Source: an uncultured archaeon
GTDB taxonomy: Archaea > Thermoplasmatota > Penumbrarchaeia > JASLWR01
DNA: 64,000 nt
Assembly (NCBI GenBank): GCA_964430885.1
Contig: CAYSHM010000006.1
Coordinates: forward strand, 1-64,000
Reading direction: 5' to 3'
Position 1 is the stretch's first letter. Each line of letters opens with the position of its first letter. Of the stretch, positions 4,335-64,000 are shown piece after piece. The position numbers were made by a program, and so were the translations under genes. Under the pieces are notes generated by a model, which saw only the letters and a list, made by a program, of their open reading frames with translations, made no database searches and was not told the origin of the DNA.

Positions 4335-4666
4335 GAATATACATCCTCTGTTTTCGGTGGCCTGAAAATTTCTGTTAAGGCAAGATTTTATTTCATATAA
4401 AAGTTGGTATTTGATTTGCCAAGGGATTAATTAAATTTTCATTTATTATATTATGTATTTTTTAAATTCCTATTTGAAAAAAGGGGAAAATCGGCATACC
4501 TACCATAAATGTAAAATATAAGGTTGGCCTAAACATATTTCATTAATAAGCAGATTTGTATCTGTGGCGAGGTGTTTGGCATATTCTGGCCATTGCCTTC
4601 TATTTGTTAAAAAAACTCTTCGGATTCAATTCTTATTTTCATCTAATTTGGATTTGGTGTTCAGTT

Positions 4667-11456: not shown

Positions 11457-11779
11457 TAGAATTATTATCGTTCAATTCTGTAATTATCTTAATATAATAA
11501 AATTTATTCAGATTTCTCCGCCATTTTCTCTGCATTATTATTCTTGTAAAGGGGACACAGTCATATAGATTTATTTTCATTTTGATATGATGTGCTAATC
11601 AGAAGGTCCTTCAGGGGTTTTGGATGGTCTAAAAGGCGGACAACTTACTTCTAATATTCAATAGGAAAAATGGATTAATATTAAATATAAAATGCGGTAT
11701 AGTGTTGGGCTCAAATACAGGTATTTAAATTAGAATTTAGGGCACAATGAATACTCTTCATTAGGTGGGAGAGATACTA

Positions 11780-14700
11780 ATGGTAAAGGAAAATATTAAA
11801 AGTAAAGGTCTATCTATATCAGGTAGAGGCGGCGAAGACAAAGACAACATTAGCGTGTCCACCCGGTTCAAAAAATATTTTGGCTTTGGAGATTATGAAG
11901 GAGCGAATACTTGGTTGGCGAGGAATTGGTGGATCCTTCTAACGCTGGGGGGCATATTTCTACTAGGTTTGCTCATGAGGGCTTATTTCTATTATCCTTT
12001 GGCCAATGAGCTTGGCTTCTCAGGGAACGATCCCTATTATCACCAGCGAGTGATTGAACATATCCAGCAGCACCATACCCACCTTATAGAAGATGATCTT
12101 CTAAACTATCCTCTTTTCGCTACAAATCCGCGCCCTCCTTTCTTTGACTGGAGCGTAGCAATAATGGGAATATTCCTTGCCCCCTTTTTCGGATTCAATG
12201 TGGCTACTAGCACTGAGAGCCTGATGTATATTTCACCATCCCTCTGGGGTGCTCTCACGGTTATACCGGTTTACATGATCGGAAAAGAGATGTTTGGAAA
12301 GAAGGCCGGCCTTTTGGGTGCTTTCATCATGGCCACAATGCCCTCTCACATAGAGAGGTCGCCAGCAGGTTTCTCAGATCACGATTCTATCGTGGTTTTC
12401 TTTGTGGTATTATCCATTTTCTTCCTGTTCAGGGCTTTTAAAACCCTTGATCACCGAACTTGGGTAAAGGATTGGATGAATACCAACTCCATTTATGAAG
12501 GGATCACCGATTTCTTTTCAGCCAACCAGGTGGCAGTGTTTTATTCACTGCTTGCAGGAGTGAGTCTTTCCACAATAGCACTGACCTGGAAAGGTTTTCC
12601 CTATGCATTGGCAATAGTTTTCATCTATTTCCTGTTCCAGGTGACTTTTGACCGGTTCAGGAATGTTGATTCCACAGGAATATTTATCTGCATATTTCTG
12701 GCATTCTTCACAACACTTGTGGTATCCTATCCTTATTATATGAATCTGAGCTTCTCCACATGGATCACACCGCTTTATCTGTTATTATCCATAGTGATCA
12801 TAGGTTCCTTCCTGATATTCACTCAGAAATATCCATGGATCCTAGTGATCCCCCTGGGTGTGGTGGTGGCCATTGTTGGCTATCTCATTCTCAGTCTGAT
12901 AGCCCCCAATGTTGCCCAGGCCTTGGCAACTGGCCAGGGTTATTTCATTAAGTCAAAATTGTATTCAACGATCGCAGAGGCTCAGCCTCCCCAGTTCTCA
13001 AGACTGGCCGTGGCCTATTCGATATTCGTTTTCTTCTTTGCTCTTATTGGTATTGTGAGAGCAGCCATTCAGGTTCCGAAACACTGGAAGAAGGAGAATG
13101 TTTTCATTGTTGTTTGGGCAATTGTTGCCGTATACATGGCCATGTCTGCGGTCCGTTTCATGTTCAATGCAACACCGGTCATAGCTATCACTGCCGGATG
13201 GATATTGTATGAACTGGTGAAGAAGCTCAACGTCAAGAGCAAAATATTGATATTCTACATAATGGTCACTTTGGGATCATTGATAATCCTGGCATGGTGG
13301 GGAGTTGAGAACGACTTCTCATTGGGTTATCCCTGGATGATCTTCATAGGATTCTTAGCCCTTGTGGTGGTTCCGATTCTGATCGCAGTATACGATAATT
13401 ATGATAAATCAAAGACCAGTACCTATATTGTGGTGATACTGGGCGTATGGACATTGGCCAGCCTGGTAATGTTCATGATGGATGATAAGCTCAGCTGGAG
13501 CAATATCGGAGATGTCCTGGTGGACAATCTCAGTATTTGGTATTTCGGTCTGGCAGCCCTTTTGATTACTTTGGTCCCCATCATAATTCTGTTCTCAAAG
13601 AAGAGTTATGCCATCACTCATTTTCTCTCCATTGGATCAATAACCTTAATCCTCATGGGGCTGCGTAATTACGGTTTCTTTCAGGATTTCGTAGCGTCCA
13701 AGACATCTGAGATGCTGTTCGGTTTCTGCATACTTCCTTTGCTTGTTCTCGTTTTCAATCTCTATTTCCTTTATATGGATGAGAACTATATGAAGGACAG
13801 TGCCAGGAAGGTATTGATCATAGCTATGGAACTGTGGTTCCTGTCATTCTTCTTCAATCCGAATATCTATTTCGGAATAGTTTGCGCCATATTGATACTG
13901 GTCAACATCTATCTGTTGACCCCTTACAGAAAATCCTTCAAGCACAAGACAACACCCATGCATGTGCTGATAACTCTGTTTGCCACATTCTTCATACTTC
14001 TACCTCAGATGTGGTTTGCTATTGATGCTTCCCTGCCCTATGAGGATAAATGGGATATGAACCAGAACATGTATGATGCCATACCGGATATCATTGAGAG
14101 CGATAAAGCAGATGCAAATAAATATTTTGGAGCCTTCGGTCACGGTTTCACATCGGAATATTGGAGGGCGGCCTTCGATTGGCTAAGCGAGCAGGATAAT
14201 GACAAGATACCTTCGGAACGTCCGGCTTTTGTCAGCTGGTGGGATTACGGTTTCTGGTGTGCCTATATGGGTCAGCATCCCACTGCTGCGGATAACTTCC
14301 AGTACGGTTATCAGTTTGCGGGAAGTTTTATTTCATCCCAGAATGAGACTGAGGCAGTCAGTTTGATGATAGCCCGTCTCATCGAAGGTAATTACCTGAA
14401 TAATAAGCTTAAAAATGACATTAAGGACCTTTTTACTGATGATAAATATCTGGGCAGTGAGGAAAAGTACATCAGCATCATCTCCGGAAAGAAGCTGAAC
14501 GCAGCCGAAAAGGTCTGGGAGATAATGAACCACGGTGAGGATTATGTTGATATTATCAAGGATAATCCTGACCGATACGGAAAATATCTGGAACTTCTGC
14601 CGACCAATGCAAAATATGCAGCGGTCCGTGGAGTTCTCATGAATGTGGACCTTGAGACTCAGGTATCTCTTCTGAAGGACCTTGAGGATATGGTAAATAA

Positions 14701-17700
14701 AAATATCAGATATTTTGCTGTGGATTCAAGATTGTTCCCCTTTACAGCTCAGAATACCGGTATCTTCTATGCACCCATCAAATTGGCTGACAAGGATATA
14801 GATGAATTTCTTGAATATGTCGTGGAAACAACAGAAGGTGAGATGTCCATGGAAGAAGTTGAGGATAGGGTGGAGGAAGACCCGGATTTCCGTGAACAGA
14901 TCATAGATTACAAGCTAAAATATACGGACAACTTCTACAATTCGCTGTTTTACAGATGTTATATCGGTTACAGCGGAAAGGATCTAGGGAAGGGTGATCT
15001 GGGCGTACCTGCAATAGCACCTGAAGGGGAATTTGCTTCAGGTGGAAGCAGTTTCTATCCCATGCAGGGTTGGAACATGACCCATTTCAGATTGGTTTAC
15101 AAGACTATGTACTATACACCCAAATCGAGCAACAATGCTTCCTTCCCCGAGGATTATACTGCAATGAACTTTGATGAAGCTCAGGAACTTTATGAGGACC
15201 AGGGTGGTTATAGGATTTCCGGTTTGAAGAGCGGAGCATTTTTCCTGGAATACTATCCAGGGGCTGAAATGAGGGGTAGGGTATTGACAGAAGGTGATGA
15301 GCGGCAGCCTATGCCCGGAGTTAGAGTGGTGGTCTATGATGAGTATGGGATCCCCCATGACATGTCAATTACAGATGATGATGGTAATTATGAACTGATA
15401 TTACCTCCCGGAGAGAATACCATTGTGACCTCTACAGGAGGTTTTGGTGAGGAGGATACCGAACTTCAGGCCAGACTGATGATGCAGGAGACAACTGTTC
15501 TGAATCAGACCATCCTGACCGTTACCAAGGACCAATCTAACAGGATAACCGACCATATTATCAATAGGGACCTTATCATCAAGAAGGGTACCGTTGACGG
15601 AAAATTGTTCATCGATAACAATAACAACGGGGAGTACGACCGTCTTCAGGATGAAATCCTTAACGAAGGGATGGTTAAGATAGTCCAGGGCAAGAACAAA
15701 GATATTTTCTACGAGGAAGAGGTGGAGGATGAACTATACAATTTTACCACTGTCCTTCCAGGTGAATATGCTTTTACCGTGGGACTATACGGCCATGATG
15801 TTGAGATAGATGATAAACTCGCGGTGACCCCCAAGGCCAATGAAGAATTAAATATCTACACCAAGGACATAGGTATTGCACCAGCGAACCTATCGGGGCA
15901 GCTTACATTCAACAATGGCAGTAATGCCACTGAAATAATGGTGGTTCTTAAAGACACCCAGAACGGAACTGTTTATCAGTATGTGACCAATTCAACAGGT
16001 CATTATTATTTCGATGAGCTGCTGCCGGGTGATTTCGAACTGACAATCGAACAGTCACCATATGAAAAGGTGGACCGCACCGTGAAAATTGCCATGGGCG
16101 AGAAGAATTACCAGAACATCACACTTGTCCAGGTGGCCCCTGTTTCAGGCAGGGTATTTTTTGACAGTCTGGGCAACGGTTATGATATTGATGATTCAAT
16201 CGGCAACGCCCGGATTCGGTTCATACCTGATGACAGTGAAAAGAACATAACAATTGCTGTTAGCGGTTCGGATGGAAGATATGTCACCAACCTTTCATTG
16301 GGCCACTATACTATATATGTGGATTATGTGAATGGCGGACAGCATTATACATATCTCGGTGATATTGAGTGTATTGAGGGTGTGGAGAAGTTATGGGATA
16401 TTGAACTCTCACTTTCTTTCAGGGTTGAAGGTGAAGTTTCCTTTGGAAGTGATATTTGGCCCAAGGATAACTTCGACATCAACAACACAGAGGTTTCCAT
16501 CAGAAAAGAGTTTCTAACCATGAAACTTCCAGTTAATCTCTCAGGATATTATTCGACCTATTTACCTGTGGATGATTACTATATAACAGCATATCTGATT
16601 GAAGACGAATATACTGCAGGAATTGCAGGATCCTATATTGTTGGAGATGTAGATCAGGAAAGAACCCTTGATCTGGAGTGCGAAAAGGCCTTCAGTACCT
16701 CCGGTTGTATTTACTGGGATCGGGACGGCGACGGGAAGCTTACAATGGGCAACTCGTCCTTGGACGTTCAGGGTATCGTATTGGATATGGAGAACAACTA
16801 TCCTTACTTCGAGGATCCTTTAGCAGGCAGTGTGACAACTGATCCAAGCGGGACAACCACCACGGAAACTGTTCCAACCCAAACAACAGGAACCAGAGCC
16901 GACACCCGTCAGGAAGAGGATGGATCTCCTGAAGTGGACATATTTGAAAATCCCATAAATGGAACTGAGAATGAAACCCATGATTACGACCTCTATGAAA
17001 ATGTGACCGATGTCGTACTTGAATTTACCAAGGGAAACATGGTGTATCGAATAGTGACCAACGATACGGGTTTCTTCACAACATATCTGCCTAAGGGCGT
17101 ATATACCGTTGAAGTAAATTCTGTAGAATTGGATAATCTAAAAGCCACAATCAAGATAGGCGAGGATGAAGTGAACACTTTCACTCCTGAGATTTCCCCG
17201 AAAGAGACCGAATGCAGGATTAATATGGGAGTGGATAGGAACAATGATGATATTATTTCCCCTAATGAGCTTGTAGGCCGATATACCCTTTGGTTTAACG
17301 CGACCACTCCAGGAGCCCACAGCAAGCGTGTGGATTATATTGGTGGGGACACTACTATAGCATTATTGCCTGGGGTTTATGATATATCATACTCAAAGGA
17401 TTTCACGGACAATGGCATCGATGTAAGACACAGATTGGAAACAAATCTCTCTTTAAAAGTGGGGGAACTGGAAAAGATAGTGGACCTTTTTGTTCAGGAA
17501 ACTGTAAGGTTCAGGGGTAAGTCAGTGACTGAATTCGGCGAACCGGCGGATAATTCCACATTGAGTCTGGAATCCATTCTGGAAGGTAATGTACTTGAAG
17601 TTGTGTGCAACGAATTCGGTTATTTTGATATGTTTGTCCCCATTGGTAATTATTTCATCAATTCTAAATATACCACCGATTCTGGAGTTTACATACTGCG

Positions 17701-20023
17701 TAGATCTTTAGCTATCACATCCCTTGAAAAGGCCCCTACACTGATTTTCACAAAGGCCTATCCTTTGAACGTAACACTGTATTTTGATAAGAACGATGAT
17801 GGGAAATATCAGAGCACTGAGAAGCTCATGGACATACCCTTGACAATAACCGGAGATATAACCACTACCCATCATACAAATTACCAGGGTTTGGTATCAA
17901 CATCCCTGCTGCCTGATAAGGAATACTATATAAGCGTTCATCATACTTCGGCGGACTCAACTTACCGCCATATTGCCGAAACTACCATCATCAAAGAAAA
18001 ACAGGCCCAGGATATAAGAATTTCAGTGAGCAAGTATATCCAAGCTTCAGGCAAGGTTTATTGGGACCGGGACCTGAACAAGGTTTTCTCAACTGATGAA
18101 AAGATCATCGATGGAACCATTGAATTCATCAAGTCGGATTCCACCACGGCTGGGGAATATACCTTCCTTACTGGAAATGATGGCAAATGGTCGGGATATC
18201 TGCCGATCTTTCATAATAATACCCAGGAATTTGATGTGGTAATATCGGCACCGGGTTTTAAAGATGAACACGTGGAAAAAATGATCAAACCTTCTTCCAA
18301 AACCCTTGATGTGAGGATGGATCCCTTACCTGTTCTTTATACTGGCATGATTTTTGAGGACCTCAATAACAGCAACACTAAGGAAATCACTGAAGATATT
18401 CTTGCAGAGGTCGAACTTTCATTCATATCGATCTCAAAGACCGCCCTGAACGTTTCGGTCACCACCGATTCAAAGGGCCGATACAGCGTGCTAGTGTTCC
18501 CTGGCGAATATATGGTCAAATCCCTTGTAAAGGGCAGTCAGGTGTTCATCAGCGAGTTTAATGAAGAGGTAGTTCTTCTAGAGGATAAAAAGTTGGACAT
18601 CCCCCTGAAATTGGGCAAATATGTATTTGGAAGTGTTTCGTACATAGACACGAATGGCAATGAGCACAAAGATATTGATTCCCGGGAAAACGGTATTATT
18701 ATCAAGGGTCAGGATAACAATGTTGAGCGGGATCTGGAATTCAGCGATGGATTCTATGATACTTATCTTCCATATGGTTCATACTCTATTGAGATGAAAG
18801 GATATGATGCCGAGGAATATGAAAAGACCATGACCTATGAATTACCTAGGGATACCATCGTAATCAATGATTTCTATGATTTCTACAATCTGGATCTCGT
18901 CAAGGACGAGAAGAAGACCCTGGAATTGACCATCGTGGATCAAGTTGAAGAAATTACCTTCAATAGAACAATTAACCAAGGTGCCTCTGTTGAACTTGAA
19001 GTTATTGTAAAGAACAAGGGAAACATTCCCATGAACATAACTCTATCCGGAAATGAACTTCCGGAAGGATGGTCATTGGATATTGTGGACCGAAAGGCCG
19101 ATCTATGGTTGGATGAAGAGATGAGAACAAAGGTCACGGTCACTACATCTTTCGACGCCCTCAATACCAATGAGATAGAGATAGGAGCCGAATCAACTGC
19201 TGGATCAAAGGATGATGTTACACTGAAGATCAATACTCATCCTAAATACGAGGCCGAAGTATATACCGAAGATAAACTCGATAGGGGTTTCCTACAGAAC
19301 GGATCAAAGAATTTCAATATGACAATTAAGAATCTCGGAAATGCGGGGGATGATTTACTCTTTTATCTGGAAAAGAAAACCTCCGACCTCTGGAACATCT
19401 CTATCCAGAATGAAGAGCTGAATTCAACAGGTTATGCCTTTCACTATTCTCAAAAGGACATTTACAAGAATGTTACCATCAAGGTTGAAGCACCCAATTC
19501 TACATCAGACAACTGCAGATTTGTTATTGGTGTAAAGGGCAGGGGAGTTAACCAGAGATTATCTATCAACGGTACAATAACCAAACCTGACATTTCTATA
19601 AAGAATGTTGAGTTCAAGAATTTGGATCTTTTAGACAAGGATAGGAATGTCACTATGTATGTGACCCTTCATGCTTCTCAGGCAGATGTCGGAAAATTCA
19701 ACTTCACAGTTAAACTTGATGGTGAGAAGATCACTGAACTGTCTGAAACCATAGATAGCATTGAACAGGATGCTGATTACACAATGGTATTCGATTGGAA
19801 TCTTTCGGATGAAGTGGGAAAACACAAACTTGAGCTTGAAGTTGATCCAGAGGATCAGATAATGGAATCTGATGATACTGTGAACAATATCTGGGTGGAT
19901 GACGGATTCAAGGTTGGCACTGATGACGATGATTTCAATTGGAGAATAGTTATCGCTGTTGTGGTGGTATTGATCATAGTAATAGTGTCCTATGTGATTT
20001 GGAGGAAGAAACAGGTAGTATAA
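11780..20023 (+). CDS. aglB: Giant oligosaccharyltransferase AglB (STT3 family) fused to carboxypeptidase-regulatory/SdrD-B-like, Ig-like and CARDB domains, with a C-terminal TM
   Basis: GNDPYYH, FSDHD, STIAEAQ, SWWDYG and ADNFQ STT3 motifs; ~1600 aa of repeated G.VY.D.D.DG beta-sandwich modules; LEVDPEDQIMESD…NN CARDB motif. Confidence 0.9.
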   Translation: MVKENIKSKGLSISGRGGEDKDNISVSTRFKKYFGFGDYEGANTWLARNWWILLTLGGIFLLGLLMRAYFYYPLANELGFSGNDPYYHQRVIEHIQQHHTHLIEDDLLNYPLFATNPRPPFFDWSVAIMGIFLAPFFGFNVATSTESLMYISPSLWGALTVIPVYMIGKEMFGKKAGLLGAFIMATMPSHIERSPAGFSDHDSIVVFFVVLSIFFLFRAFKTLDHRTWVKDWMNTNSIYEGITDFFSANQVAVFYSLLAGVSLSTIALTWKGFPYALAIVFIYFLFQVTFDRFRNVDSTGIFICIFLAFFTTLVVSYPYYMNLSFSTWITPLYLLLSIVIIGSFLIFTQKYPWILVIPLGVVVAIVGYLILSLIAPNVAQALATGQGYFIKSKLYSTIAEAQPPQFSRLAVAYSIFVFFFALIGIVRAAIQVPKHWKKENVFIVVWAIVAVYMAMSAVRFMFNATPVIAITAGWILYELVKKLNVKSKILIFYIMVTLGSLIILAWWGVENDFSLGYPWMIFIGFLALVVVPILIAVYDNYDKSKTSTYIVVILGVWTLASLVMFMMDDKLSWSNIGDVLVDNLSIWYFGLAALLITLVPIIILFSKKSYAITHFLSIGSITLILMGLRNYGFFQDFVASKTSEMLFGFCILPLLVLVFNLYFLYMDENYMKDSARKVLIIAMELWFLSFFFNPNIYFGIVCAILILVNIYLLTPYRKSFKHKTTPMHVLITLFATFFILLPQMWFAIDASLPYEDKWDMNQNMYDAIPDIIESDKADANKYFGAFGHGFTSEYWRAAFDWLSEQDNDKIPSERPAFVSWWDYGFWCAYMGQHPTAADNFQYGYQFAGSFISSQNETEAVSLMIARLIEGNYLNNKLKNDIKDLFTDDKYLGSEEKYISIISGKKLNAAEKVWEIMNHGEDYVDIIKDNPDRYGKYLELLPTNAKYAAVRGVLMNVDLETQVSLLKDLEDMVNKNIRYFAVDSRLFPFTAQNTGIFYAPIKLADKDIDEFLEYVVETTEGEMSMEEVEDRVEEDPDFREQIIDYKLKYTDNFYNSLFYRCYIGYSGKDLGKGDLGVPAIAPEGEFASGGSSFYPMQGWNMTHFRLVYKTMYYTPKSSNNASFPEDYTAMNFDEAQELYEDQGGYRISGLKSGAFFLEYYPGAEMRGRVLTEGDERQPMPGVRVVVYDEYGIPHDMSITDDDGNYELILPPGENTIVTSTGGFGEEDTELQARLMMQETTVLNQTILTVTKDQSNRITDHIINRDLIIKKGTVDGKLFIDNNNNGEYDRLQDEILNEGMVKIVQGKNKDIFYEEEVEDELYNFTTVLPGEYAFTVGLYGHDVEIDDKLAVTPKANEELNIYTKDIGIAPANLSGQLTFNNGSNATEIMVVLKDTQNGTVYQYVTNSTGHYYFDELLPGDFELTIEQSPYEKVDRTVKIAMGEKNYQNITLVQVAPVSGRVFFDSLGNGYDIDDSIGNARIRFIPDDSEKNITIAVSGSDGRYVTNLSLGHYTIYVDYVNGGQHYTYLGDIECIEGVEKLWDIELSLSFRVEGEVSFGSDIWPKDNFDINNTEVSIRKEFLTMKLPVNLSGYYSTYLPVDDYYITAYLIEDEYTAGIAGSYIVGDVDQERTLDLECEKAFSTSGCIYWDRDGDGKLTMGNSSLDVQGIVLDMENNYPYFEDPLAGSVTTDPSGTTTTETVPTQTTGTRADTRQEEDGSPEVDIFENPINGTENETHDYDLYENVTDVVLEFTKGNMVYRIVTNDTGFFTTYLPKGVYTVEVNSVELDNLKATIKIGEDEVNTFTPEISPKETECRINMGVDRNNDDIISPNELVGRYTLWFNATTPGAHSKRVDYIGGDTTIALLPGVYDISYSKDFTDNGIDVRHRLETNLSLKVGELEKIVDLFVQETVRFRGKSVTEFGEPADNSTLSLESILEGNVLEVVCNEFGYFDMFVPIGNYFINSKYTTDSGVYILRRSLAITSLEKAPTLIFTKAYPLNVTLYFDKNDDGKYQSTEKLMDIPLTITGDITTTHHTNYQGLVSTSLLPDKEYYISVHHTSADSTYRHIAETTIIKEKQAQDIRISVSKYIQASGKVYWDRDLNKVFSTDEKIIDGTIEFIKSDSTTAGEYTFLTGNDGKWSGYLPIFHNNTQEFDVVISAPGFKDEHVEKMIKPSSKTLDVRMDPLPVLYTGMIFEDLNNSNTKEITEDILAEVELSFISISKTALNVSVTTDSKGRYSVLVFPGEYMVKSLVKGSQVFISEFNEEVVLLEDKKLDIPLKLGKYVFGSVSYIDTNGNEHKDIDSRENGIIIKGQDNNVERDLEFSDGFYDTYLPYGSYSIEMKGYDAEEYEKTMTYELPRDTIVINDFYDFYNLDLVKDEKKTLELTIVDQVEEITFNRTINQGASVELEVIVKNKGNIPMNITLSGNELPEGWSLDIVDRKADLWLDEEMRTKVTVTTSFDALNTNEIEIGAESTAGSKDDVTLKINTHPKYEAEVYTEDKLDRGFLQNGSKNFNMTIKNLGNAGDDLLFYLEKKTSDLWNISIQNEELNSTGYAFHYSQKDIYKNVTIKVEAPNSTSDNCRFVIGVKGRGVNQRLSINGTITKPDISIKNVEFKNLDLLDKDRNVTMYVTLHASQADVGKFNFTVKLDGEKITELSETIDSIEQDADYTMVFDWNLSDEVGKHKLELEVDPEDQIMESDDTVNNIWVDDGFKVGTDDDDFNWRIVIAVVVVLIIVIVSYVIWRKKQVV

Positions 20024-21000: not shown

Positions 21001-22428
21001 ATGACATTGATACTACCTGGAGTAGAGATAGAAGTAGTAAAGGAAATAGTTGTCGGACAACTGAATCCCGCTGGAATTTTCGGCCTTGTGGGAATTACCG
21101 AGGAAAATGAGGACGGAACTCCAAAAGCTGTGGATAGAGAAGGGTCTTACAAAGGATTAAAGGGACTTTTCGGAAAGAGTATCGAATTCACCATTCCTGA
21201 AGCTAAACAGGCTTATCAGAACGGTGTTTCAGAGATTGTTGTATCACCGATACATAGTGCCTCAGCCAAGGCGGCGATCCTTGCATTAAACGATGCAAAG
21301 GGAAACAAGGTAGCTACCCTGACCGCCAGGGCCAGGGGAGTCTGGGGGAACGGTATCAACGTGAAGATCAGTTCCAAGATGGACGGAGAGGGAAAAAAGA
21401 CCCTTTTCACCATGACCCTTGCATATAAAGGAGCAGTGGAATTTTATGACAATCTATCCATGGTCGAGACCAATGATAGATATTTCGTAAATATAGTAAA
21501 TCAGCTCTCCGATCTTATCCGTATGGAAGCAGGAAAAGCCGCAGGCGGTAAAAAGGGAAAGGACGCCGCAGCAGCTCTAGAACTTCCGGCAGATTTTGAA
21601 GGCAGTCTTTCTGGAGCTACAGATCCCACCGCAAAGGACTACGAAGATGCCCTTTCCAAGCTGGAGAGCGAGGAGGATGTGGACCTTGTAGCAGCATCCG
21701 TCCATACATGGAAGGACCGAGGGTTGGCCAAAAGTGTTTATGCCGCTATTGAGGCACACTGCAATGTTATGAGCCAGAACTGTTTCAACAGGATTGGTTT
21801 CGGTGAAGCTCCGCCTCCTGAAGAATTTGCAGACCAGAAGGACGAGGTCGATTTTATCACCAAGCAGACCAATGTCCTCAACAGCGACAGGTTTGTTTAT
21901 GTAGCCCCCCACGGCGCACTAGGTGCTGTTGTCGGTCTAATAGGCAATCTGAACTACTACCAATCACCCACCTTCAAGACCCTGAGCGGGCTGACTGGTT
22001 TGGAGAGCAAATATTCTCCTACCAACCTCAAGAAACTCCTGGTGGCCAAGATACTTGCGCTTGAGATAAAGAAGGGCAGAGGGATCATTATTGAGAAAGG
22101 CATCGCTACTTCAGGCGAACAGATCTCAGTTCAGAGAGTAGCCGACAGATCAGTAAGAGGTACAAAGATGATCGGCGACCTCTTCATAGGGACTCTCAAC
22201 AACATGTCCGGCAGGGCAGCTTTAAAGGAGAAGATCACCGAGTTCTTCCTGCAGATGGAGAAGGACGGCGGTATTGTTCCAAATGCTGACGGATCCGACC
22301 CGGCCTACAAGGTCGATGTATATGCCACCGACGATGATATCTCAAAAGGTATCGTCAGAGTGGATGTGGCTGTCAGACCGGTAAGAGCCATTGACTATAT
22401 CTACGGAACAATCCTTGTCAGGGCATAG
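21001..22428 (+). CDS. Contractile tail sheath protein (phage sheath/eCIS type)
   Basis: N-terminal LPGVEIEV, TARARGVWGNGINVKI, E.YDNLSM…RYF..IVN, and C-terminal ISVQRVAD…FIGTLN…VDVAVRPVRAIDYIY; GGAGG SD at 20989-20993. Confidence 0.88.
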   Translation: MTLILPGVEIEVVKEIVVGQLNPAGIFGLVGITEENEDGTPKAVDREGSYKGLKGLFGKSIEFTIPEAKQAYQNGVSEIVVSPIHSASAKAAILALNDAKGNKVATLTARARGVWGNGINVKISSKMDGEGKKTLFTMTLAYKGAVEFYDNLSMVETNDRYFVNIVNQLSDLIRMEAGKAAGGKKGKDAAAALELPADFEGSLSGATDPTAKDYEDALSKLESEEDVDLVAASVHTWKDRGLAKSVYAAIEAHCNVMSQNCFNRIGFGEAPPPEEFADQKDEVDFITKQTNVLNSDRFVYVAPHGALGAVVGLIGNLNYYQSPTFKTLSGLTGLESKYSPTNLKKLLVAKILALEIKKGRGIIIEKGIATSGEQISVQRVADRSVRGTKMIGDLFIGTLNNMSGRAALKEKITEFFLQMEKDGGIVPNADGSDPAYKVDVYATDDDISKGIVRVDVAVRPVRAIDYIYGTILVRA

Positions 22429-49705: not shown

Positions 49706-51052
49706 TTGAAAAGCGAGATAAAGAGAGCCCTGTTTTGGGACATTGGAATTCCAGGCCCTCCGTTGGAGATAGAGATTCATCCGACTGAGAAGAGTAATTT
49801 AGAGATAAATCCCTGTAAATGTTTAAAGGAAACTCTGGTAAATCCGAAGACCTTAGGTCAGAGCCAGCTTGAGAAGATAGTACATCAAGGCTGTGAACTA
49901 GGTGTAAAAAAATGGATTTTCAAGGGTGATGGTGAACCATTGCTTATCAAGGACCGGCTGATTAGTTTAATGCAGTATATCAAGGACCATATGGCCCATG
50001 GAACACTCCAGACAAACGGAACAATGTTCACCCCGTCCAATGTGACTGATATCGTCACAATGGCCTGGGACCGGATAGAGATATGTATGCCAAGCTCAGC
50101 GGAGGATAATTATTTTCAAATCGTCCAAACAGAGAAGGCTTATGAACATATCATCAATGGCATAGATATGATAACTGACATCAAGGATGAATTGGGAACT
50201 GACAAACCGGTCATTGATATATTTCTTCCAATAACTCCGAAGACCTATGATAACATTGGAGATATGCTGAAATGGGCTAAGACCAAGGATATCAATAGGG
50301 TAAGGGCCGAGCCCCCATCAGCACTATCCAGCGCGGAACTGGAACTGATCAAACTTGATACCAATGAACTAAATCTATTGAAGAACCACATACCCAGCTA
50401 TCATTCTCTGGCAAGATCACTGAATATAAAGTTCGATATAATACCCATCAATGAGGAGTTCACGCCCAAATTAGGGAAAAAAAGAAAGAAGGACGAACGG
50501 AATAAATCCAAAGATTCCGACCTCTCATTTCCATCCAATGAACTTGATTCAGAAACCCTATTTTGTTTAGAACCATATCTAAAAATGGTTTTCAGACCGA
50601 GATTGGGAATAGGCCCTTGTCCAATTTCCAGATATGAACAGGATAACAAGAACTACCTGTCAGCGAATGAGTTGGCCGAGAATGATCTTGATGATTTATG
50701 GAAAGCCCCTCTTTTCACGTATTTAAGAGAGAATGCTAAGACCGGTTTTGTTGATTTCTATTGTAATAATTGCCCCAAGCGTTTAAGAACCAGGCAGATG
50801 AAATCTATTAAATCTTTGAAGCTCAGCCGAGATCGTTTCCTGAGAAATACAATAGATGTGATGATCAGGAACAAATCTGAGAATGACCCTCGGATCAAGG
50901 AGAGATTGGACCGTATACGTAAATTGACAAAGGATATTAACCTAAGACAGGGTGAATTGGTCGAAATGAGAAGATATCATTTGGAACTAGAAAAAATACG
51001 CTCTCGCTTCCCCTATAGGGTTTTGAGAAAATTACGTGTGATAAAGGAATGA
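49706..51052 (+). CDS. Radical SAM/SPASM-like protein with a degenerate CxxxCxxC motif and C-terminal coiled coil
   Basis: GDGEPLL, QTNGT, and FCLEP…GPCP…LW…CNNC SPASM-like cysteines; the cluster motif position reads TEKSNLEINPCKC. Confidence 0.7.
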   Translation: MKSEIKRALFWDIGIPGPPLEIEIHPTEKSNLEINPCKCLKETLVNPKTLGQSQLEKIVHQGCELGVKKWIFKGDGEPLLIKDRLISLMQYIKDHMAHGTLQTNGTMFTPSNVTDIVTMAWDRIEICMPSSAEDNYFQIVQTEKAYEHIINGIDMITDIKDELGTDKPVIDIFLPITPKTYDNIGDMLKWAKTKDINRVRAEPPSALSSAELELIKLDTNELNLLKNHIPSYHSLARSLNIKFDIIPINEEFTPKLGKKRKKDERNKSKDSDLSFPSNELDSETLFCLEPYLKMVFRPRLGIGPCPISRYEQDNKNYLSANELAENDLDDLWKAPLFTYLRENAKTGFVDFYCNNCPKRLRTRQMKSIKSLKLSRDRFLRNTIDVMIRNKSENDPRIKERLDRIRKLTKDINLRQGELVEMRRYHLELEKIRSRFPYRVLRKLRVIKE

Positions 51053-51066
51053 TATCGAATTACCCT

Positions 51067-54000
51067 TCAGCTTTCTAACTGAGCGAGCAGATTCTCGATC
51101 TTCTTAGATGTTGATTGTTTTGGTCCTGGGGCCGGTGGAGTGTTTACAGCCGATGTAGATGGCTGAACCGGGGCGGTTTTGGGGGGTTGAGTTGTAGGGA
51201 TGGTAGTCGTGGGTTGTGTAACAGGTAATGTTCTAGCCGGTGTTGTTACCGGGACCGTCTTTGGTGGTTGGGTTACAGGTGCAGTAGTCGCAGGCCGTGT
51301 CACAGGTACTGTTTTAGCCGGTGTTGTTACCGGGACCGTCTTTGGTGGCTGAGTTGCAGCAACCGGTTGGGTTACAGGTGCAGTAGTCGCAGGCCGTGTC
51401 ACAGGCACAGTTTTGGCCGGTATTGTTGTTACCGGGATAGTATTTGGCGGTTCTGTAGTTGTAACCGGTATTGTCTTTGGAGCATCCATTCCTTCCTGCT
51501 GGCTGGTTTCGGTCTGCTCAGGCAGAAGCTTCATTTCCGTACCTGGCTGTTGATCAGTTGATAATGGCAGTGATACTGTGGGTGTATCCTGAACTCCGTA
51601 GGCAGTCTCTCCTTGGTATTGAGCATCCTGTTCGTAATCCTGACCATAATACTCCTGAGACTGATCATAATACTCCTGAGACTGATCATATTGCTCATAT
51701 TGACCGTATTGGTCGTATTGCATCTGCTGCTGGCCTGCAGGAGCCATCGCTCCGGGATATCCGTACTGATCCTGCTGACCGTACTGCATATAGGACTGTC
51801 CCATTGGCTGCTGCTGAGGATATTGCTGCAGTGCTGCCCCTGCCTCCTGTTCAGGCATATCTTCATCAAGGAGATCGTCAAAATCAAGGTCGTCTATCAG
51901 GGTTGTACCTTCCTTAAGATCGTAATCGTCCGTTGCATCATACTTGAGTTCCCTAACACTGTATTTGCTTCTAATGATCGCCAATGCAAGAAGGATTATT
52001 ATAAAGCCGGCCATCACAATAAGCGATGCGTAAAGCCAGTCTTCAGGAGTGACGCTATCGTGATCATCGTGATCATCGTCATCATCTCCATTATCGTCAT
52101 CAATTTCAAGGACGCGTATCTTAGCGGTTCCTATATTATTTCTGGTATTGTTATCATCGATTCCAGTCAGCTCAACTGTAAGATTGAAAAGGCCTTTCTC
52201 GTTGAAGGTATATTCAAAGTTCTTGATCTCATAGACATTCCGCTCCAGATAGGTAATGTTCGTTTTGAATACCGGATTGTTCCTTCCCTCGACGTAAACT
52301 GCAATATCCAGTACATTGCCGAACTTGTTTGAATCAAAATATTGGTTGCCTTGATTGACCACTCCGAACTTGAAATTGATCCTCTCTTTTTCCTTCACCT
52401 TGTATCCGTCTGTCTTGGTGATCTCGTTTATGTAAATATCAGTACAACCGAACTCGAATTCAACTACCCGGATTATTACCTTGGTGGTTTTAACAGTGTC
52501 CGCTCCAAGTGTGATCCTTCCCAATATCTCAAAGGTGTATGCTTTAAGTTCCACATTCTTGGGCGGGCTGAAAGTAAGAGAGAAACTCTTTGTTTCCTTA
52601 TAGGACAGGTAAAGATTTTTCTGCGCTAATAACCCCCAGTCCTCACCATGTATCAGGAACGAAAGGGTCACATCCGAGTTCCCAGTGTTCTGGATCTCGA
52701 GATCTATTACGGTTGCCCCTCCCGGTATGGCATCATAGGTTACATTTGTAGTGAGGAATTGAAAATCCAGAGTTTCCAGAACTTCTACAATGAATAAATG
52801 CTGGAAAGTAATGTTCTCGTCCCCTTCTGAAGCCAGAACAAGCGTGAACTCATAATCCTTAGCTGAGGCGCCGTAGGGAATCTTGATATTGAACCCGAAT
52901 GTTCCGTTGAGTCCGAAGTCGACCTTGAATCTCTTCTCACCGATGTATATCCAATCCGGATACATTGATTCAATTGCAAAGATATAGGTATCCATTATAT
53001 TACCGATATTTGTAATTCGTGATTCGAATGATATATTGTCCCCTATATGCCCTTTCTTTTCAGTGATATTATAGAATATCTCAGCCTTGAAAACCGATAC
53101 AACATCAACTGTAAGCGCCACGCTGTCCTCATATACAAGAGGATCATCTGAAAGTACATTTACAATAAAGGTGTATTTCCCCACTGGCGTACTGGGAGGC
53201 ACCTTTATCCTCAACTCGATATCAGCGTCTAGGCCCTTTGGAAGACCCCCTTCTCTAATGTTTGTAGTATCGAACCACCATTCCCATCCCGCTGGATCTG
53301 AGGGATACTTGGCTACAACAAAGGTTCCTTCACTACCAATAATATCATCTAGACTGTTACCTACATTTTCAATGGTGAATACGAATGTTGTATAGTCCAG
53401 GGGTTGGCCTTCCTCGGGTTCGGGGGTCCCTTTGATTTCTATATCATAGATCTTTCTCACAGAAGTCTCCACCCAGGAATTCCATTTAGGTTCTTCCCTT
53501 TTAACAATAGGTTTTGCCCACAATGATGTGATCTGGGTCTGTCCGGCATCCGCCTCCATAGGTACAAACAATATTACGGATATGATTATTGTATCGCCCA
53601 TCTCAATGTTCAAGATCTCCTGGGTGTCATCTACCAGCTGAACAAGCCATTCATAGTCGGAGGATTCCGGCCATACATCATAGATGTCGTCACCGTTGCC
53701 GAGATTGGTTACCTGGAAATCGTAGATGAGCTGCTGGCCAGGGTCTACCTGCTGTTTTTCAGGCGTGGATATGTCGAGCATGTGGTCCAATCCAACCTCC
53801 ACTACAAATGGGATCATAGATATATTAGCCGGTGCCAATTTAGATTTCAAGGTGATGTCGATAGAATAATTGCCCACAGTGGCATTGTAGATGTCGCCTA
53901 CTATGATCTTTACTGTAAGACTTTTTACCCTTTCTGATTCAGGAGAGGGGCTGTTAAAGGGCGGTATTCTGTCGAATTTATCAGGATAAAGGATAATCTG

Positions 54001-54327
54001 CCAACCTGCAGGCGTATTGGTTTCCACAACGTAATCATCGACCATGTTTCCCATGTTTCTCACAGTGCAGTTCAGGACCACCAGGTCCCTTGGGAAAGCT
54101 TTCTTTGAGATGTTCTCATCAGTTTCAAGGAGAGGTGTGAACTTAGCAGCCCGCTTCTGGGATAAAGAATCCGTTTGGGGACTGTTCTCAGTTCCTAGAA
54201 TACCTACATTATTCCTATAGGAAAACATAGTTGCATCCAGACTGTTGAAAAGTATGATGAAGACAATTAGAATAGCCAATGATAATAGGTTTCGTTTATT
54301 TTGAGATCCCTTCTTCAAACATATCAC
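51067..54327 (-). CDS. Large single-pass surface protein: tandem Ig-like (COG1470/NPCBM-associated-like) and CARDB domains, TM, low-complexity tail
   Basis: Signal-like N-terminus; repeated (V/I).N.GN..D module starts; one TM near aa 765-787; acidic, Q/Y-rich and P/T-rich tail. Confidence 0.8.
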   Translation of the reverse strand: MICLKKGSQNKRNLLSLAILIVFIILFNSLDATMFSYRNNVGILGTENSPQTDSLSQKRAAKFTPLLETDENISKKAFPRDLVVLNCTVRNMGNMVDDYVVETNTPAGWQIILYPDKFDRIPPFNSPSPESERVKSLTVKIIVGDIYNATVGNYSIDITLKSKLAPANISMIPFVVEVGLDHMLDISTPEKQQVDPGQQLIYDFQVTNLGNGDDIYDVWPESSDYEWLVQLVDDTQEILNIEMGDTIIISVILFVPMEADAGQTQITSLWAKPIVKREEPKWNSWVETSVRKIYDIEIKGTPEPEEGQPLDYTTFVFTIENVGNSLDDIIGSEGTFVVAKYPSDPAGWEWWFDTTNIREGGLPKGLDADIELRIKVPPSTPVGKYTFIVNVLSDDPLVYEDSVALTVDVVSVFKAEIFYNITEKKGHIGDNISFESRITNIGNIMDTYIFAIESMYPDWIYIGEKRFKVDFGLNGTFGFNIKIPYGASAKDYEFTLVLASEGDENITFQHLFIVEVLETLDFQFLTTNVTYDAIPGGATVIDLEIQNTGNSDVTLSFLIHGEDWGLLAQKNLYLSYKETKSFSLTFSPPKNVELKAYTFEILGRITLGADTVKTTKVIIRVVEFEFGCTDIYINEITKTDGYKVKEKERINFKFGVVNQGNQYFDSNKFGNVLDIAVYVEGRNNPVFKTNITYLERNVYEIKNFEYTFNEKGLFNLTVELTGIDDNNTRNNIGTAKIRVLEIDDDNGDDDDDHDDHDSVTPEDWLYASLIVMAGFIIILLALAIIRSKYSVRELKYDATDDYDLKEGTTLIDDLDFDDLLDEDMPEQEAGAALQQYPQQQPMGQSYMQYGQQDQYGYPGAMAPAGQQQMQYDQYGQYEQYDQSQEYYDQSQEYYGQDYEQDAQYQGETAYGVQDTPTVSLPLSTDQQPGTEMKLLPEQTETSQQEGMDAPKTIPVTTTEPPNTIPVTTIPAKTVPVTRPATTAPVTQPVAATQPPKTVPVTTPAKTVPVTRPATTAPVTQPPKTVPVTTPARTLPVTQPTTTIPTTQPPKTAPVQPSTSAVNTPPAPGPKQSTSKKIENLLAQLES
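51235..51440 (-). repeat. Intragenic tandem repeats encoding P/T/V-rich units (KTVPVTTPA / RPATTAPVTQP)
   Basis: Near-identical DNA blocks such as GCCGGTGTTGTTACCGGGACCGTCTTTGGTGG and GGTTGGGTTACAGGTGCAGTAGTCGCAGGCCGTGTCACAGG each occur twice. Confidence 0.85.
51645..51690 (-). repeat. 21-bp perfect tandem duplication (YDQSQEY x2)
   Basis: CATAATACTCCTGAGACTGAT twice in tandem. Confidence 0.85.
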
Positions 54328-60735: not shown

Positions 60736-63700
60736 TCATCGGGAATATGGTTTTTCCTGCCCACCTATCTTAATTGTTCTTCCATCTGAACTGCCATGAC
60801 CTGACATTTTGTCCGATCCGAAATCGTACCTGTTCGCATCAGGGTCGCCCTGTTTGTTGGATTTCAAAACCTCAACCCGTCTTCTAGCACTGTTTGGATT
60901 GGAACTGCTGACCTTGTTCCTGGCAGCAATATCCCTATGGACCACGCCTTCTTGATGAAGCGGGGGAACAGGGTCGAGTTCTGGTGCAGGCCCTGCTGAA
61001 GCAGTTGTATTGGACCTTGACGAATTATAATCCTGTGCTTTAGTGCCTCCTGAGCCTCCGGAACCACTTCCTCCTGGTTCCTGCATAAGCTGCGGAGAGC
61101 TCATATCAATTGGTTTAGATATTTTTGGTGGTTTTTCTGGGTCCATCCTGGCCGAGGTAGTGTTTGACCGTGACGAATTGTAGTCTTGGGCTCTTGATGC
61201 ACTACCTGCTGATGAGCCAGCTGCGGCTGCCTGCCCATATTTCACCCTGCCGGGTCTTTTTCTTAGTAGTGGATCTTCACCTGTATCCGCCTGTGGCTGA
61301 ATCCTATTTGTCCGTGTTGTGTTATGATTAGCAGGCGATGCGGTATCGATATCACTCCCTCCGTTCTTTTTTAGCGTTCCGCCAGGCCTTTTTCTTACAA
61401 CTTTATCATTACCATTGCGGAGTATATCATCGCCGCTTTCCACCCCGCTTGTTGTATTTGACCTTGAAGAGTTGTAATCCTGTGCTCTGCTTTGATATTG
61501 ATCATATCCCTTTTTCCCGGAAAATCCTCCTGAAGCCGGTCCCGCAGCAGAGGCAGGTTCATACATAGGATTCTCCCCCTGATTACCGTTCCCCTGATAC
61601 AGGGGGTTGTTGCTAGAACGTCCCGATCCTTTGGTTAGAATACAGCCCAAACCTCCTAATATAAGACCCGATACCAGACCGAGGAGTACCCATGGAAGGA
61701 TACTCTCCTTCTCATCAGTTTTGTTCTTAGATAATAGGGTGTTAGGGACTTCATTTACATCTGAAGGATCAGTTCGATTTTCGTATTCCTCCATGTTTGA
61801 GAATCCATCACCGTCATCATCTGCCTGCGAGTCGTCGACCTTGGGATCTGTGCCGTGTTCACTCTCCCATCCGTCGGGGAGACCATCTCCGTCTGTGTCC
61901 GAATCGTTCACATCCGTGCCCAACCGTATTTCCTCAACGTTTGTAAGGCCGTCCCCGTCTTTATCGTACATGGCATCGAATGGGTCCAATGGGTCCAACC
62001 CATAAGATAATTCGTCGGAATCCAGTATGCTGTCCCCGTCGTCATCATCATCCAGAGCATCGGAGATTCCATCCCGGTCGGTATCCATATAGGCATCAGG
62101 GTCCAGTGGGAATGCGTCAGTGCTATCATCTATCCCGTCCCCGTCATCATCATCATCCAAAGCATCAGCTATACCATCCTTATCGGTATCGGAAGGAAAT
62201 GAAGTGTTATCCTCTGGATCGGATCCCAACAGCTCTTCTATGGCATCTGGCCAACCATCCCGATCCTTGTCCAGGCGACCCTCCCCAGAACTGTTCATAT
62301 TGTATTCATTTTCAGTCAGGTTTCCCGCGGGTAATACGACCGTAATAACTGCTGAATCGGTCCCCGTTAATCCCTGTTGGTCCATGACTTTGAGTTTGAT
62401 CCGATAATTTCCCGGCTCTTCAGGGTGAAATGTGAACCATTTTTCATATATCTCAGCTGATGTACCGTTGAATTCAATGGTCCAGGTATAATTGTCTATC
62501 CCAATATTATCCATGCTGGAATTGCCGGAAATTGTATTTCGGTCCCCCAGAACTATCATTTCCTCGGTCTCAATTACTGCATTTGGAGCATGAATATCGA
62601 ATAATGGTCTGGTATAGATGGGAGAAAGATTGAAATTGCCGGAGATGTCGCTTGAATTGAATATATAACTCAGGTTGCTGGAAAGGTTGTTAATCATAAG
62701 AAAATTGTTCCAATGATCGAGCTGACCACCTTCCATTGTGAGGTTCATCTTTTGTCCCTGTCCATACCAGTATTGCATGGTTACCATTTCCACTTCAATA
62801 TTATCATAGGAGGATGCTGTGAAGAGAACGTTTTCTCCTGCAATAATCTTCGGTTCACCTGCTTCCATTACCTCAGGCGGTATCCTGTCCAGAACCGCCA
62901 TTTCTCTTGCGGGTGTATTCATTGTATTGCCCGCCATGTCCTCGGCGAGTATGGTATGCGTGATATTACCCATGATATCGTCAGGGATCGTTAGATTGTA
63001 GCTCCAGTACCCTCCACCCTGATGTTCCATTGTGTGTTTGTGCGTAATACTATCTTCATACATAGTTATCTCAAGGATGACTTCTTTCAGCCCGATATCA
63101 TCAAAGACCTGGGCGCTGAATTCCCAGTACTTCCCGGAAAATGCTGGGCCTTGCATTGTTTTGTCAACTATCACCGGTGATTTAATGTCTCTGGGAATAA
63201 CCCTGGGAAAACTATCCTGGACCGGTTTCATTCTATCAGGGATATCTATTTCATAAGGCGTGTTCCAGATGTATGAATCATAAGTAGCGTTGGGATATCT
63301 TTCTGACATATCTGACCAATAATTTCCTATTCCGCCGTTGTCCCATTTGTTATTGTACCCCGCGTCCTTAGCCTGAACGCCACCGTTGTTGTTATCGGCA
63401 AAATTGTTGCTGTAAATTGATATGGATGTCGTTTCGAACCTCAGATGTAGGCCGTAAATCTGATTCCCCAATAGAGAGTTGTTCCTGATCAGAATGTTGT
63501 AGGAGGCCAATATTGAAAAACCATACTTGCCGCCAGTAGCAGTGTTGTTGTCTATGATGACGTTCCCGGTATTGTTGAGAAACAGTCCCGCTCCTTGGCT
63601 GTCGATCATATAATTGTCCTTTATCATCACATTCTGAACATTGAACAGGGATATACCTCCGTTTTCAAAATACTTGTTTGTTCCTCCATTAACGCTTTTG

Positions 63701-64000
63701 ATGGAGTTGCCCTGTATTATGATATAATCAGTAGTATTTCCAATATAAATGCCGTGTCCGTAACCTACACCGTGAATATCCCAGCCGCTGATGATGTATG
63801 GATCATCCTTGGTTCCGTTCCCGCCGTTTGTTCCATTTTCGGGTGTTAGATCCTTTCCGCTGTTAATAATTATAGGTTCCCGGACATTGTCTCTGGGGTC
63901 GCCCTTATCCATGACTCTTTCATTTTCATCTATCTCGTCCGTACCTGATACCCATGTAAATATAAAAGGAACCATGAATATCGTGATTATCAAAGCAATT
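60736..64000 (-). CDS. Single-pass surface protein (5' end beyond the window): NosD/beta-helix, Ig-like, PKD and Ca-binding DxDxDG repeats, TM, ~300-aa motif-mosaic tail
   Basis: The frame stays open to the window edge; G.GTKDDPYII and parallel beta-helix repeats, GNYWSD, SMDNIGIDNYTW…PGNY PKD, TM ILPWVLLGLVSGLILGGLGCIL. Confidence 0.85.
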   Translation of the reverse strand, partial: IALIITIFMVPFIFTWVSGTDEIDENERVMDKGDPRDNVREPIIINSGKDLTPENGTNGGNGTKDDPYIISGWDIHGVGYGHGIYIGNTTDYIIIQGNSIKSVNGGTNKYFENGGISLFNVQNVMIKDNYMIDSQGAGLFLNNTGNVIIDNNTATGGKYGFSILASYNILIRNNSLLGNQIYGLHLRFETTSISIYSNNFADNNNGGVQAKDAGYNNKWDNGGIGNYWSDMSERYPNATYDSYIWNTPYEIDIPDRMKPVQDSFPRVIPRDIKSPVIVDKTMQGPAFSGKYWEFSAQVFDDIGLKEVILEITMYEDSITHKHTMEHQGGGYWSYNLTIPDDIMGNITHTILAEDMAGNTMNTPAREMAVLDRIPPEVMEAGEPKIIAGENVLFTASSYDNIEVEMVTMQYWYGQGQKMNLTMEGGQLDHWNNFLMINNLSSNLSYIFNSSDISGNFNLSPIYTRPLFDIHAPNAVIETEEMIVLGDRNTISGNSSMDNIGIDNYTWTIEFNGTSAEIYEKWFTFHPEEPGNYRIKLKVMDQQGLTGTDSAVITVVLPAGNLTENEYNMNSSGEGRLDKDRDGWPDAIEELLGSDPEDNTSFPSDTDKDGIADALDDDDDGDGIDDSTDAFPLDPDAYMDTDRDGISDALDDDDDGDSILDSDELSYGLDPLDPFDAMYDKDGDGLTNVEEIRLGTDVNDSDTDGDGLPDGWESEHGTDPKVDDSQADDDGDGFSNMEEYENRTDPSDVNEVPNTLLSKNKTDEKESILPWVLLGLVSGLILGGLGCILTKGSGRSSNNPLYQGNGNQGENPMYEPASAAGPASGGFSGKKGYDQYQSRAQDYNSSRSNTTSGVESGDDILRNGNDKVVRKRPGGTLKKNGGSDIDTASPANHNTTRTNRIQPQADTGEDPLLRKRPGRVKYGQAAAAGSSAGSASRAQDYNSSRSNTTSARMDPEKPPKISKPIDMSSPQLMQEPGGSGSGGSGGTKAQDYNSSRSNTTASAGPAPELDPVPPLHQEGVVHRDIAARNKVSSSNPNSARRRVEVLKSNKQGDPDANRYDFGSDKMSGHGSSDGRTIKIGGQEKPYSR
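61003..61485 (-). repeat. Three dispersed copies of the peptide AQDYNSSRSNTT
   Basis: Copies at 61450-61485, 61156-61191 and 61003-61038; identical amino acids, different codons. Confidence 0.95.
61750..62275 (-). repeat. Thrombospondin type-3-like Ca-binding repeats
   Basis: DKDRDG, DTDKDG, DDDGDG, DTDRDG, DKDGDG, DTDGDG, DDDGDG units with E…G.DP spacers. Confidence 0.85.

Follow-up and report, generated by a model that had tools for sequence, protein, structure and literature searches.

Short peptide words shared by bacterial and archaeal phyla make up the disordered tail of an archaeal receptor-like protein

What is the function of a protein tail that consists of short peptides set in linker, several of them resembling segments of unrelated protein families? 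The question is raised by a gene at the end of a 64,000-nucleotide stretch of DNA, here called the window (positions 1 to 64,000 of contig CAYSHM010000006.1), from an uncultured archaeon of the Thermoplasmatota. The gene (60736..64000, minus strand, as are all its features given below) encodes a receptor-like surface protein of 1120 codons counted from ATG; its first codons are beyond the window end and the open reading frame reaches contig position 64098. The part of the protein after its internal membrane helix is a tail of 299 residues (60739..61635). A model that had seen the sequence alone, whose reading is here called the original prediction, took this tail to be a linker studded with islands of 9-20 residues, too short to be domains, and suggested a peptide-cassette system serving as decoy or bait, as docking scaffold or as enzyme substrate. 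The tail is a disordered string of self-contained peptide modules, and its vocabulary is patchily common to many bacterial and archaeal phyla. The modules, here called words, are discrete and their fidelity at the peptide level is extreme; they follow no fixed order or copy number, and the spacers that separate them lack conservation.

All the islands named in the original prediction were found where it had placed them in the translation of 60739-61635. Nearest the membrane helix is word A/a (61558..61617), which has two NPxY motifs 12 residues apart, start to start, in the manner of an integrin-beta tail. It is followed by word B (KKGYDQYQS; 61489..61515), which in relatives adjoins a membrane helix or directly follows a signal peptide. 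Word C, of 12 residues with the core AQDYNSSRSN, is present in three copies (61450..61485, 61156..61191 and 61003..61038), and word E (61303..61341) is a variant of it with the core NHNTTRTN. Word D is present twice, as a copy with an RKRPG core (61375..61401) and as RKRPGRVKYG (61231..61281). Word F (61081..61125) is Hcp-like, as judged by BLASTP against archaeal Hcp, and word G (60916..60960) resembles a kinase catalytic loop. The 22 residues of word H/h (60820..60885) come last; elsewhere this word ends a CarboxypepD_reg-type domain or comes after a membrane helix.

The islands were mapped independently of their initial description by scoring 7-mers of the tail, with one mismatch allowed, against 105 proteins retrieved by tail searches. 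Tail residues 7-26, 38-65, 79-87, 99-111, 119-135, 144-164, 177-185, 188-214, 226-241 and 249-276 form recurrent runs, and the island boundaries of the original prediction match them. A run can be common to up to 85 of the 105 proteins, though since these were picked by their likeness to the tail, it is the contrast between island and linker, and not the raw count, that is informative. That contrast is sharp: apart from one stray residue (142) that is also over the recurrence threshold, neither the linkers nor the C-terminal 23 residues (60739..60807; recurrent in 0 of 105) show any recurrence in this set.

The original prediction had named, as what would support it, the same islands in different orders in unrelated proteins and taxa, beyond chance expectation, and this is borne out. 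A word-indexed search with the tail gave 42 proteins at E up to 0.001 (8000 scored) and a full HMMER pass over 1.84 billion representatives gave 75. With one letter per island, the word order of the window protein is AaBCEDCFCGHh; elsewhere the orders GAABHCC, CGC, GCE, CCED, HhC, CHh, BDDCDC and hDDDBDCCDAG are found. The carriers are diverse. They include other archaeal receptor-like proteins with the words placed beyond the membrane helix, small proteins (94-260 residues) consisting of a signal peptide and words (many end exactly on a word), Bacteroidota surface proteins in which strings of words accompany CarboxypepD_reg domains and a barrel-like N-terminal domain, a haloarchaeal Tat-signal protein, and giants of 4000-5000 residues in UBP7 bacteria. 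In a set of one genome per species (185,579 species) the exact 9-mer core is present in 128 stretches, where about 5 are expected from composition. Confirmation by tblastn was obtained for 29 of the 128, and these amount to 26 loci in named genomes of at least nine phylum-level groups (Marinifilum, Woeseiaceae, Kangiellaceae, Maricaulis, Puniceicoccaceae, Chitinophagaceae, UBP7, a clostridial isolate and a haloarchaeon are among them). Carriers are mostly free-living marine or sediment prokaryotes. Two of them, Marinifilum flexuosum DSM 21950 and Aliikangiella marina GYP-15, are culturable, which makes the word system testable.

Two groups of carriers have further features. The UBP7 giants (L018, L026 and L027) were read from their loci as open reading frames of ~3900-4600 residues, and in the whole-genome search as 4057-5264. 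In them, partial Hcp, gp19 tail-tube, VgrG OB-fold, kinase-loop and EF-Tu fragments are interspersed with words of the window tail, and the C-terminus is a conserved helix-like segment. A family of ~640 residues (P0013, P0014, P0022, P0025 and P0088) has an HU-like N-terminal domain followed by about ten copies of word C between predicted amphipathic helices; AlphaFold2 confidence for it is low. The AlphaFold2 model of a helical word-bearing family (alignment A3) places word C in coils amid low-confidence helices and, with a predicted local distance difference test score (pLDDT) of 41, is too low to read.

The exactness of the words is not that of recently copied DNA. Among 33 identical 10-residue cores of word C, from 21 sources, all the synonymous codons are used. 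For the three core serines the ratios of TCN to AGY codons are 29:4, 14:19 and 24:9, for the core arginine the ratio of CGN to AGR is 24:9, and even the three copies within the window differ at most synonymous positions. As identical cores use every synonymous codon and both the serine and both the arginine classes, selection acts on the peptide, and the codon pattern shows that in both domains of life purifying selection has long held the exact peptide. The scrambled codons rule out recent duplication and a mobile DNA cassette inserted in frame. Conservation this strong is normally confined to core machinery. Here, archaea and distant bacteria have the very same peptides of 10-22 residues although all the synonymous sites differ, which implies a very conserved reader or chemistry, not yet named.

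The distribution of the tail among close relatives is patchy. It is present in 3 of 60 relatives of the archaeon and in none of the three genomes of the same family, and each sister genome has dozens of similar surface proteins or ectodomains without it. The archaeon itself has a single word-bearing gene. There is one clear ortholog (in genome G025). Its ectodomain is only 31-37% identical to that of the window protein, and words B, C, D and E are kept after its membrane helix, so that these islands are conserved in a homolog.

The architecture of the protein was deduced from profile matches and hydrophobicity. A right-handed beta-helix or NosD-like region (63304..63795; Beta_helix E 9.8e-12, NosD E 1.6e-11 in Pfam/NCBIfam), a PKD domain (62338..62592; PKD_4 E 3.4e-7) and acidic, MtsD-like TSP3-type calcium-binding repeats (61702..62202; TSP3_bac in 3 stretches) make up the recognisable ectodomain. 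Two segments are hydrophobic, an N-terminal signal or anchor and a helix of 23 residues (61633..61701), in agreement with the original claim of a single internal membrane helix before a tail of about 300 residues. The tail is basic (42 K+R against 30 D+E) and the ectodomain acidic, because of which the tail is likely cytoplasmic in the archaeon, on charge together with hydrophobicity. [N-glycosylation sequons were considered as a rationale for word C and dropped for this reason.] Serine (14%), glycine (12.7%), alanine (8%) and proline (7.7%) are prominent in its composition. AlphaFold2, with a 15-row alignment, predicts it to be disordered (mean pLDDT 51.8, predicted template modelling score 0.15), the sole secondary structure being a small hairpin at tail residues 287-296, within the non-recurrent C-terminus. 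The tail would therefore not fold as one known domain. There is no whole-tail match in Pfam-A, NCBIfam 20.0, PHROGs or PDB sequences (for the last, 0 matches at E up to 10), and the ESM Atlas gave nothing usable. The view that the islands are not domains, and that the tail is not one known fold, thus holds.

According to the original prediction, several islands also match hallmark segments of the integrin-beta tail, the tyrosine-kinase catalytic loop, Hcp and the tail tube. Three of these resemblances are detectable and the fourth is seen only through relatives; none of them amounts to family membership. The double NPxY segment (tail residues 6-25) aligns with positions 25-44 of the 44 of Pfam Integrin_b_cyt (PF08725) at E 3.4e-4. 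Its score of 20.7 bits is below the cut-off of 23.4, and the membrane-proximal half of the profile is unmatched. The NPxY motifs are at tail residues 10-13 and 22-25, the first about 9-11 residues past the membrane helix, so that two NPxY-type motifs at fixed spacing do come right after the helix of a type I receptor. The spacing is a general feature of the word: of 66 close pairs of consecutive NPx[YFH] motifs in 41 proteins, 57 are spaced by 12. Integrin tails have the same 12-residue spacing, which the profile alignment supports only indirectly. Word G matches 15 residues of PK_Tyr (PF07714) at the catalytic loop (positions 118-132 of 258; E 0.02, 14.6 bits), and a complete kinase catalytic domain (PF07714 or PF00069), with glycine loop, catalytic lysine, catalytic loop, DFG and activation segment, is lacking. 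For word F, pairwise BLASTP against real Hcp domains of an archaeon of the same phylum gave E 3e-5, with local alignments of 15-29 residues; a domain of ~130 residues as in Hcp/TssD (PF05638) is absent, and no Pfam or NCBIfam profile of it matches the tail. No gp19 (PF06841) match or domain of ~134 residues is present in the tail either, though a longer form of word D in relatives matches gp19 positions 24-77.

In the word-sharing relatives the family likeness is strong by profile score and always partial. EF-Tu is matched at positions 47-75 with E 1.3e-11, PK_Tyr at the kinase P+1 region with E 9e-8 and HU-type DNA-binding protein with E 2e-4. The UBP7 giants give T6SS_HCP at ~1e-44 and gp19 at ~1e-22 to 1e-24, each as several partial stretches, together with Phage_base_V. 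Several words of the tail thus copy the most conserved segment of a folded family (Hcp, the hairpin region of the tail tube, the kinase catalytic loop and the integrin-beta double NPxY), to which the words of relatives add EF-Tu switch I, the VgrG OB fold and the HU arm. [For words C and H, descent from an SH3-like or OmpA-like domain was considered and dropped; no profile match supports it.] The tail itself belongs to none of the families tested.

The reading favoured here, at a probability of roughly 40%, is that the tail is a multivalent array of linear mimicry peptides which acts as bait or decoy, or provides docking sites. Each word would work as a linear peptide and be bound by the protein that normally recognises the conserved segment mimicked. 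The array of words would then be a multivalent bait or decoy, or else a docking platform, and in the archaeon it would hang cytoplasmically from an adhesin-like surface protein. The word gene family would be gained and lost in the way of a conflict or interaction gene, unlike a housekeeping gene. This mimicry is favoured because it explains the likeness to known families, because it accounts for the extreme conservation (the targets mimicked being conserved too), and because it accounts for the patchy distribution, which is like that of conflict genes. The occurrence of tube and Hcp genes in word-bearing genomes, given below, is a hint in its favour as well. Ribosomal arrest peptides and universal chaperone tags were dropped as they leave the likeness to known families unexplained.

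Several results weigh against mimicry. The window tail's own resemblances are all below family cut-offs, and that of word D to real tail tubes is not significant by direct BLASTP (8 of 15 identical, E 1.4). For words C (the commonest), E, B and H no known family came up in Pfam-A, NCBIfam 20.0, PHROGs or PDB sequences, either with the tail or with small proteins made of words only, because of which mimicry is unproven for most of the tail. No binding partner or modifying enzyme was found. Among 99 neighbours at 21 loci there is no conserved gene neighbour (S9 peptidases and extracytoplasmic function sigma factors are each present at 3 loci), and synteny with the ortholog is lacking. The archaeon's genome, which is 91.6% complete, has no Hcp or gp19 tube gene, and none for PTB/FERM domains (PID PF00640, FERM_C PF09380), the latter a weak point as the control genomes gave no match either; an endogenous reader of the words is therefore not evident. 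Compartments vary, the words being cytoplasmic in the archaeon and in many carriers Sec/Tat-exported or in the outer membrane, so that a single compartment-bound reader cannot serve all carriers. In viral contigs, 4 pattern matches were seen and none was confirmed.

A wider form of the same idea is more doubtful. It supposes that a vocabulary of ten or more ultra-conserved linear peptides, probably over twenty, has spread horizontally among prokaryotes of many phyla. Each would imitate the most conserved contact segment of a widespread protein (injection-machine tubes and spikes, EF-Tu, HU, kinases or integrin-type tails), and strung in any order on disordered carriers they would be modular bait, a decoy or lure system at the level of the peptide, directed against, or serving, proteins that recognise conserved epitopes. 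If that shared vocabulary is real, the integrin-beta double-NPxY signature exists outside eukaryotes, on receptor-shaped archaeal and bacterial proteins, and if the double NPxY is functional there, it bears on the origin of the integrin-tail signature. Should the words truly mimic segments of Hcp, tube, EF-Tu, HU and kinases, they would represent an interaction or defence device of a new type.

Among known systems the tail is probably most like short-linear-motif (SLiM) mimicry proteins, such as Ehrlichia TRP120, in its working. It has the hallmark of SLiM mimicry, a disordered carrier of motifs that resemble segments of other proteins, and TRP120 is likewise a repetitive disordered carrier of such motifs, which act by binding the partners of the proteins they resemble. 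One SLiM of TRP120 is homologous to Wnt ligands and binds Frizzled receptors (PMC8112483). TRP120 is a secreted effector of an obligate intracellular pathogen and mimics host ligands. Word carriers differ in being mostly free-living, the archaeal array in being cytoplasmic, and many words in copying prokaryotic machines (Hcp, tail tube, EF-Tu, HU).

The Hcp (TssD) and gp19 tubes of type VI secretion and contractile injection systems are a second point of comparison. Words F and D match conserved segments of these folds, and proteins of relatives carry several different fragments of the Hcp and gp19 folds each; the tail differs in holding only 13-17 residues of a fold of ~130-160 residues and in being predicted to be unfolded. 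Colicin translocation domains are also unfolded, with discrete short epitopes that each dock a different target by imitating its normal partner. Colicin epitopes belong to a single toxin family with its own targets, whereas the words are common across phyla and no toxin domain is attached to them.

Much of the wiring of eukaryotic cells relies on short linear motifs in disordered regions, but a system of such motifs common to several prokaryotic phyla is, to our knowledge, hardly known. A full-text literature search, with supplementary files outside its scope, found no paper on these peptides or on such a vocabulary.

The layout of the archaeal protein also lends itself to another explanation. 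The tail could be an endogenous signalling scaffold on which cytoplasmic proteins of the archaeon itself dock and which passes on the binding of a ligand to the ectodomain, in the manner of eukaryotic integrin and receptor tails. An ectodomain, one membrane helix and a basic tail with a double NPxY at integrin-like spacing close to the helix are what such a scaffold would have, and the retention of words in the ortholog, despite the divergence of its ectodomain, fits too. The integrin-beta tail and Dictyostelium SibA share with the archaeal protein a large adhesive ectodomain, a single membrane helix and a short-motif tail with two NPxY motifs, the likeness of the archaeal tail being in its first 26 residues. 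According to PMC9197732, NPXY motifs serve as PTB recognition sequences in integrin-beta tails, and of the two NPXY motifs of SibA the proximal one is required for talin binding. The archaeal tail is unlike integrin beta in its sub-threshold Pfam score, in the lack of a detected PTB/FERM gene, and in that the double motif is also present on secreted and outer-membrane proteins. That no PID or FERM_C gene was found in the genome is weak evidence against an endogenous scaffold, the controls giving no match either. Also against it are the single gene per genome without conserved neighbour or synteny, the secreted or surface-exposed position of the words in most other carriers, and the dozens of sister-genome surface proteins that manage without the tail. 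An endogenous scaffold is held to be unlikely.

Peptidase genes near some word genes raise the alternative that the words are released or modified by peptidases or other enzymes and that it is the free or modified peptides that are active. In Woeseiaceae and Aliikangiella, words-only signal-peptide proteins adjoin S9-family peptidase genes (L015 7833-10919, L010 and L016), and at L015 the peptidase gene is 16 bp downstream of the word gene on the same strand. In the archaeon, three genes upstream of the tail gene are on its strand (contig 64282-70366, which is L001 4282-10366; minus) and encode a PD40-repeat protein, a protein with PPC, Big_7 and caspase-family (C14) parts, and an Rce1-like membrane protease. 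Add to these that in almost every case an R or K stands just before word C, and that the small carriers, signal peptide and words only, so often end exactly on a word, and a pro-peptide or substrate array has some appeal. It is nevertheless distinctly unlikely. The S9 neighbour, at 3 of 21 loci, is found in only two lineages, both rich in S9 peptidases; the ortholog lacks synteny for the upstream genes; no processed peptides are known; and cleavage alone would leave the hallmark-like sequences of the words unexplained. [Divergent from the upstream trio are genes for a 1505-residue FG-GAP and transglutaminase protein and for a 1023-residue PKD protein.]

The tube-like words suggest a further possibility, that of stickers and spacers, in which self-associating or strand-donating words derived from tube proteins cross-link copies of the carrier or attach to assemblies of the Hcp or tube kind, as a structural or anchoring device. 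Words D and F do derive from Hcp and tail-tube segments on this proposal, as do other words in relatives, and tube or Hcp genes are frequent in word-bearing genomes. Full gp19 tube genes are present in 8 of 24 word-bearing genomes as against 0 of 14 controls, and Hcp domains in 6 of the 61 genomes sampled from the archaeal phylum (2 of 3 word-bearing, 4 of 58 others), a co-occurrence that is a hint only since kin are not independent. The window also has an orphan gene for a phage-tail-sheath-like protein (21001-22428, plus strand; Phage_sheath_1 E 1e-12 and a sheath C-terminal domain), with no tube or baseplate gene beside it. Complex prediction of this protein with the tail scored 0.00, which is no verdict and speaks neither for nor against binding. 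Without an Hcp or tube gene of its own in the archaeon's genome, with kinase-, EF-Tu-, HU- and integrin-like words that do not fit, and with no packing of words in the AlphaFold2 model, stickers are slightly less probable than a substrate array. That the words are non-functional (decayed domain remnants, low-complexity noise or chance matches), for which the low-complexity linkers and the sub-threshold family resemblances of the window words could be cited, is very improbable in view of identical 10-mers with scrambled synonymous codons in two domains of life, of 128 stretches where about 5 are expected, of discrete conserved islands amid unconserved linkers, and of the occurrences in isolate genomes, which speak against an assembly or annotation artefact.

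Complete Hcp domains are present elsewhere in the archaeal sample. Open reading frames of 1261-1515 residues have 7-9 of them in tandem (L046, on G060:C36, and also G039:C18 and G050:C112), and single Hcp-domain open reading frames are found in G012, G025 and G029.

The source genome is archaeal: its small subunit rRNA best fits the archaeal model and a CDP-archaeol synthase gene is present in the window. DNA of the window is found in marine metagenome runs of two studies (uncovered parts, and runs with a small share of the sampled words, carry no weight). A 233-base contig from a metatranscriptomic library covers 61379-61610, which does not demonstrate transcription. Two large open reading frames at 49706-54327, of 448 residues (plus strand) and 1086 residues (minus strand), have no Pfam match at E 0.001. 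Beside these, a 2752-residue open reading frame (11765-20023, plus strand) is a fusion in which an STT3/AglB oligosaccharyltransferase is joined to CarboxypepD_reg, NOMO-like and CARDB domains, and just outside the window (contig 78594-79223, L001 18594-19223) a protein with a bacterial microcompartment shell (BMC) domain is encoded in this archaeal genome (E 7.6e-8).

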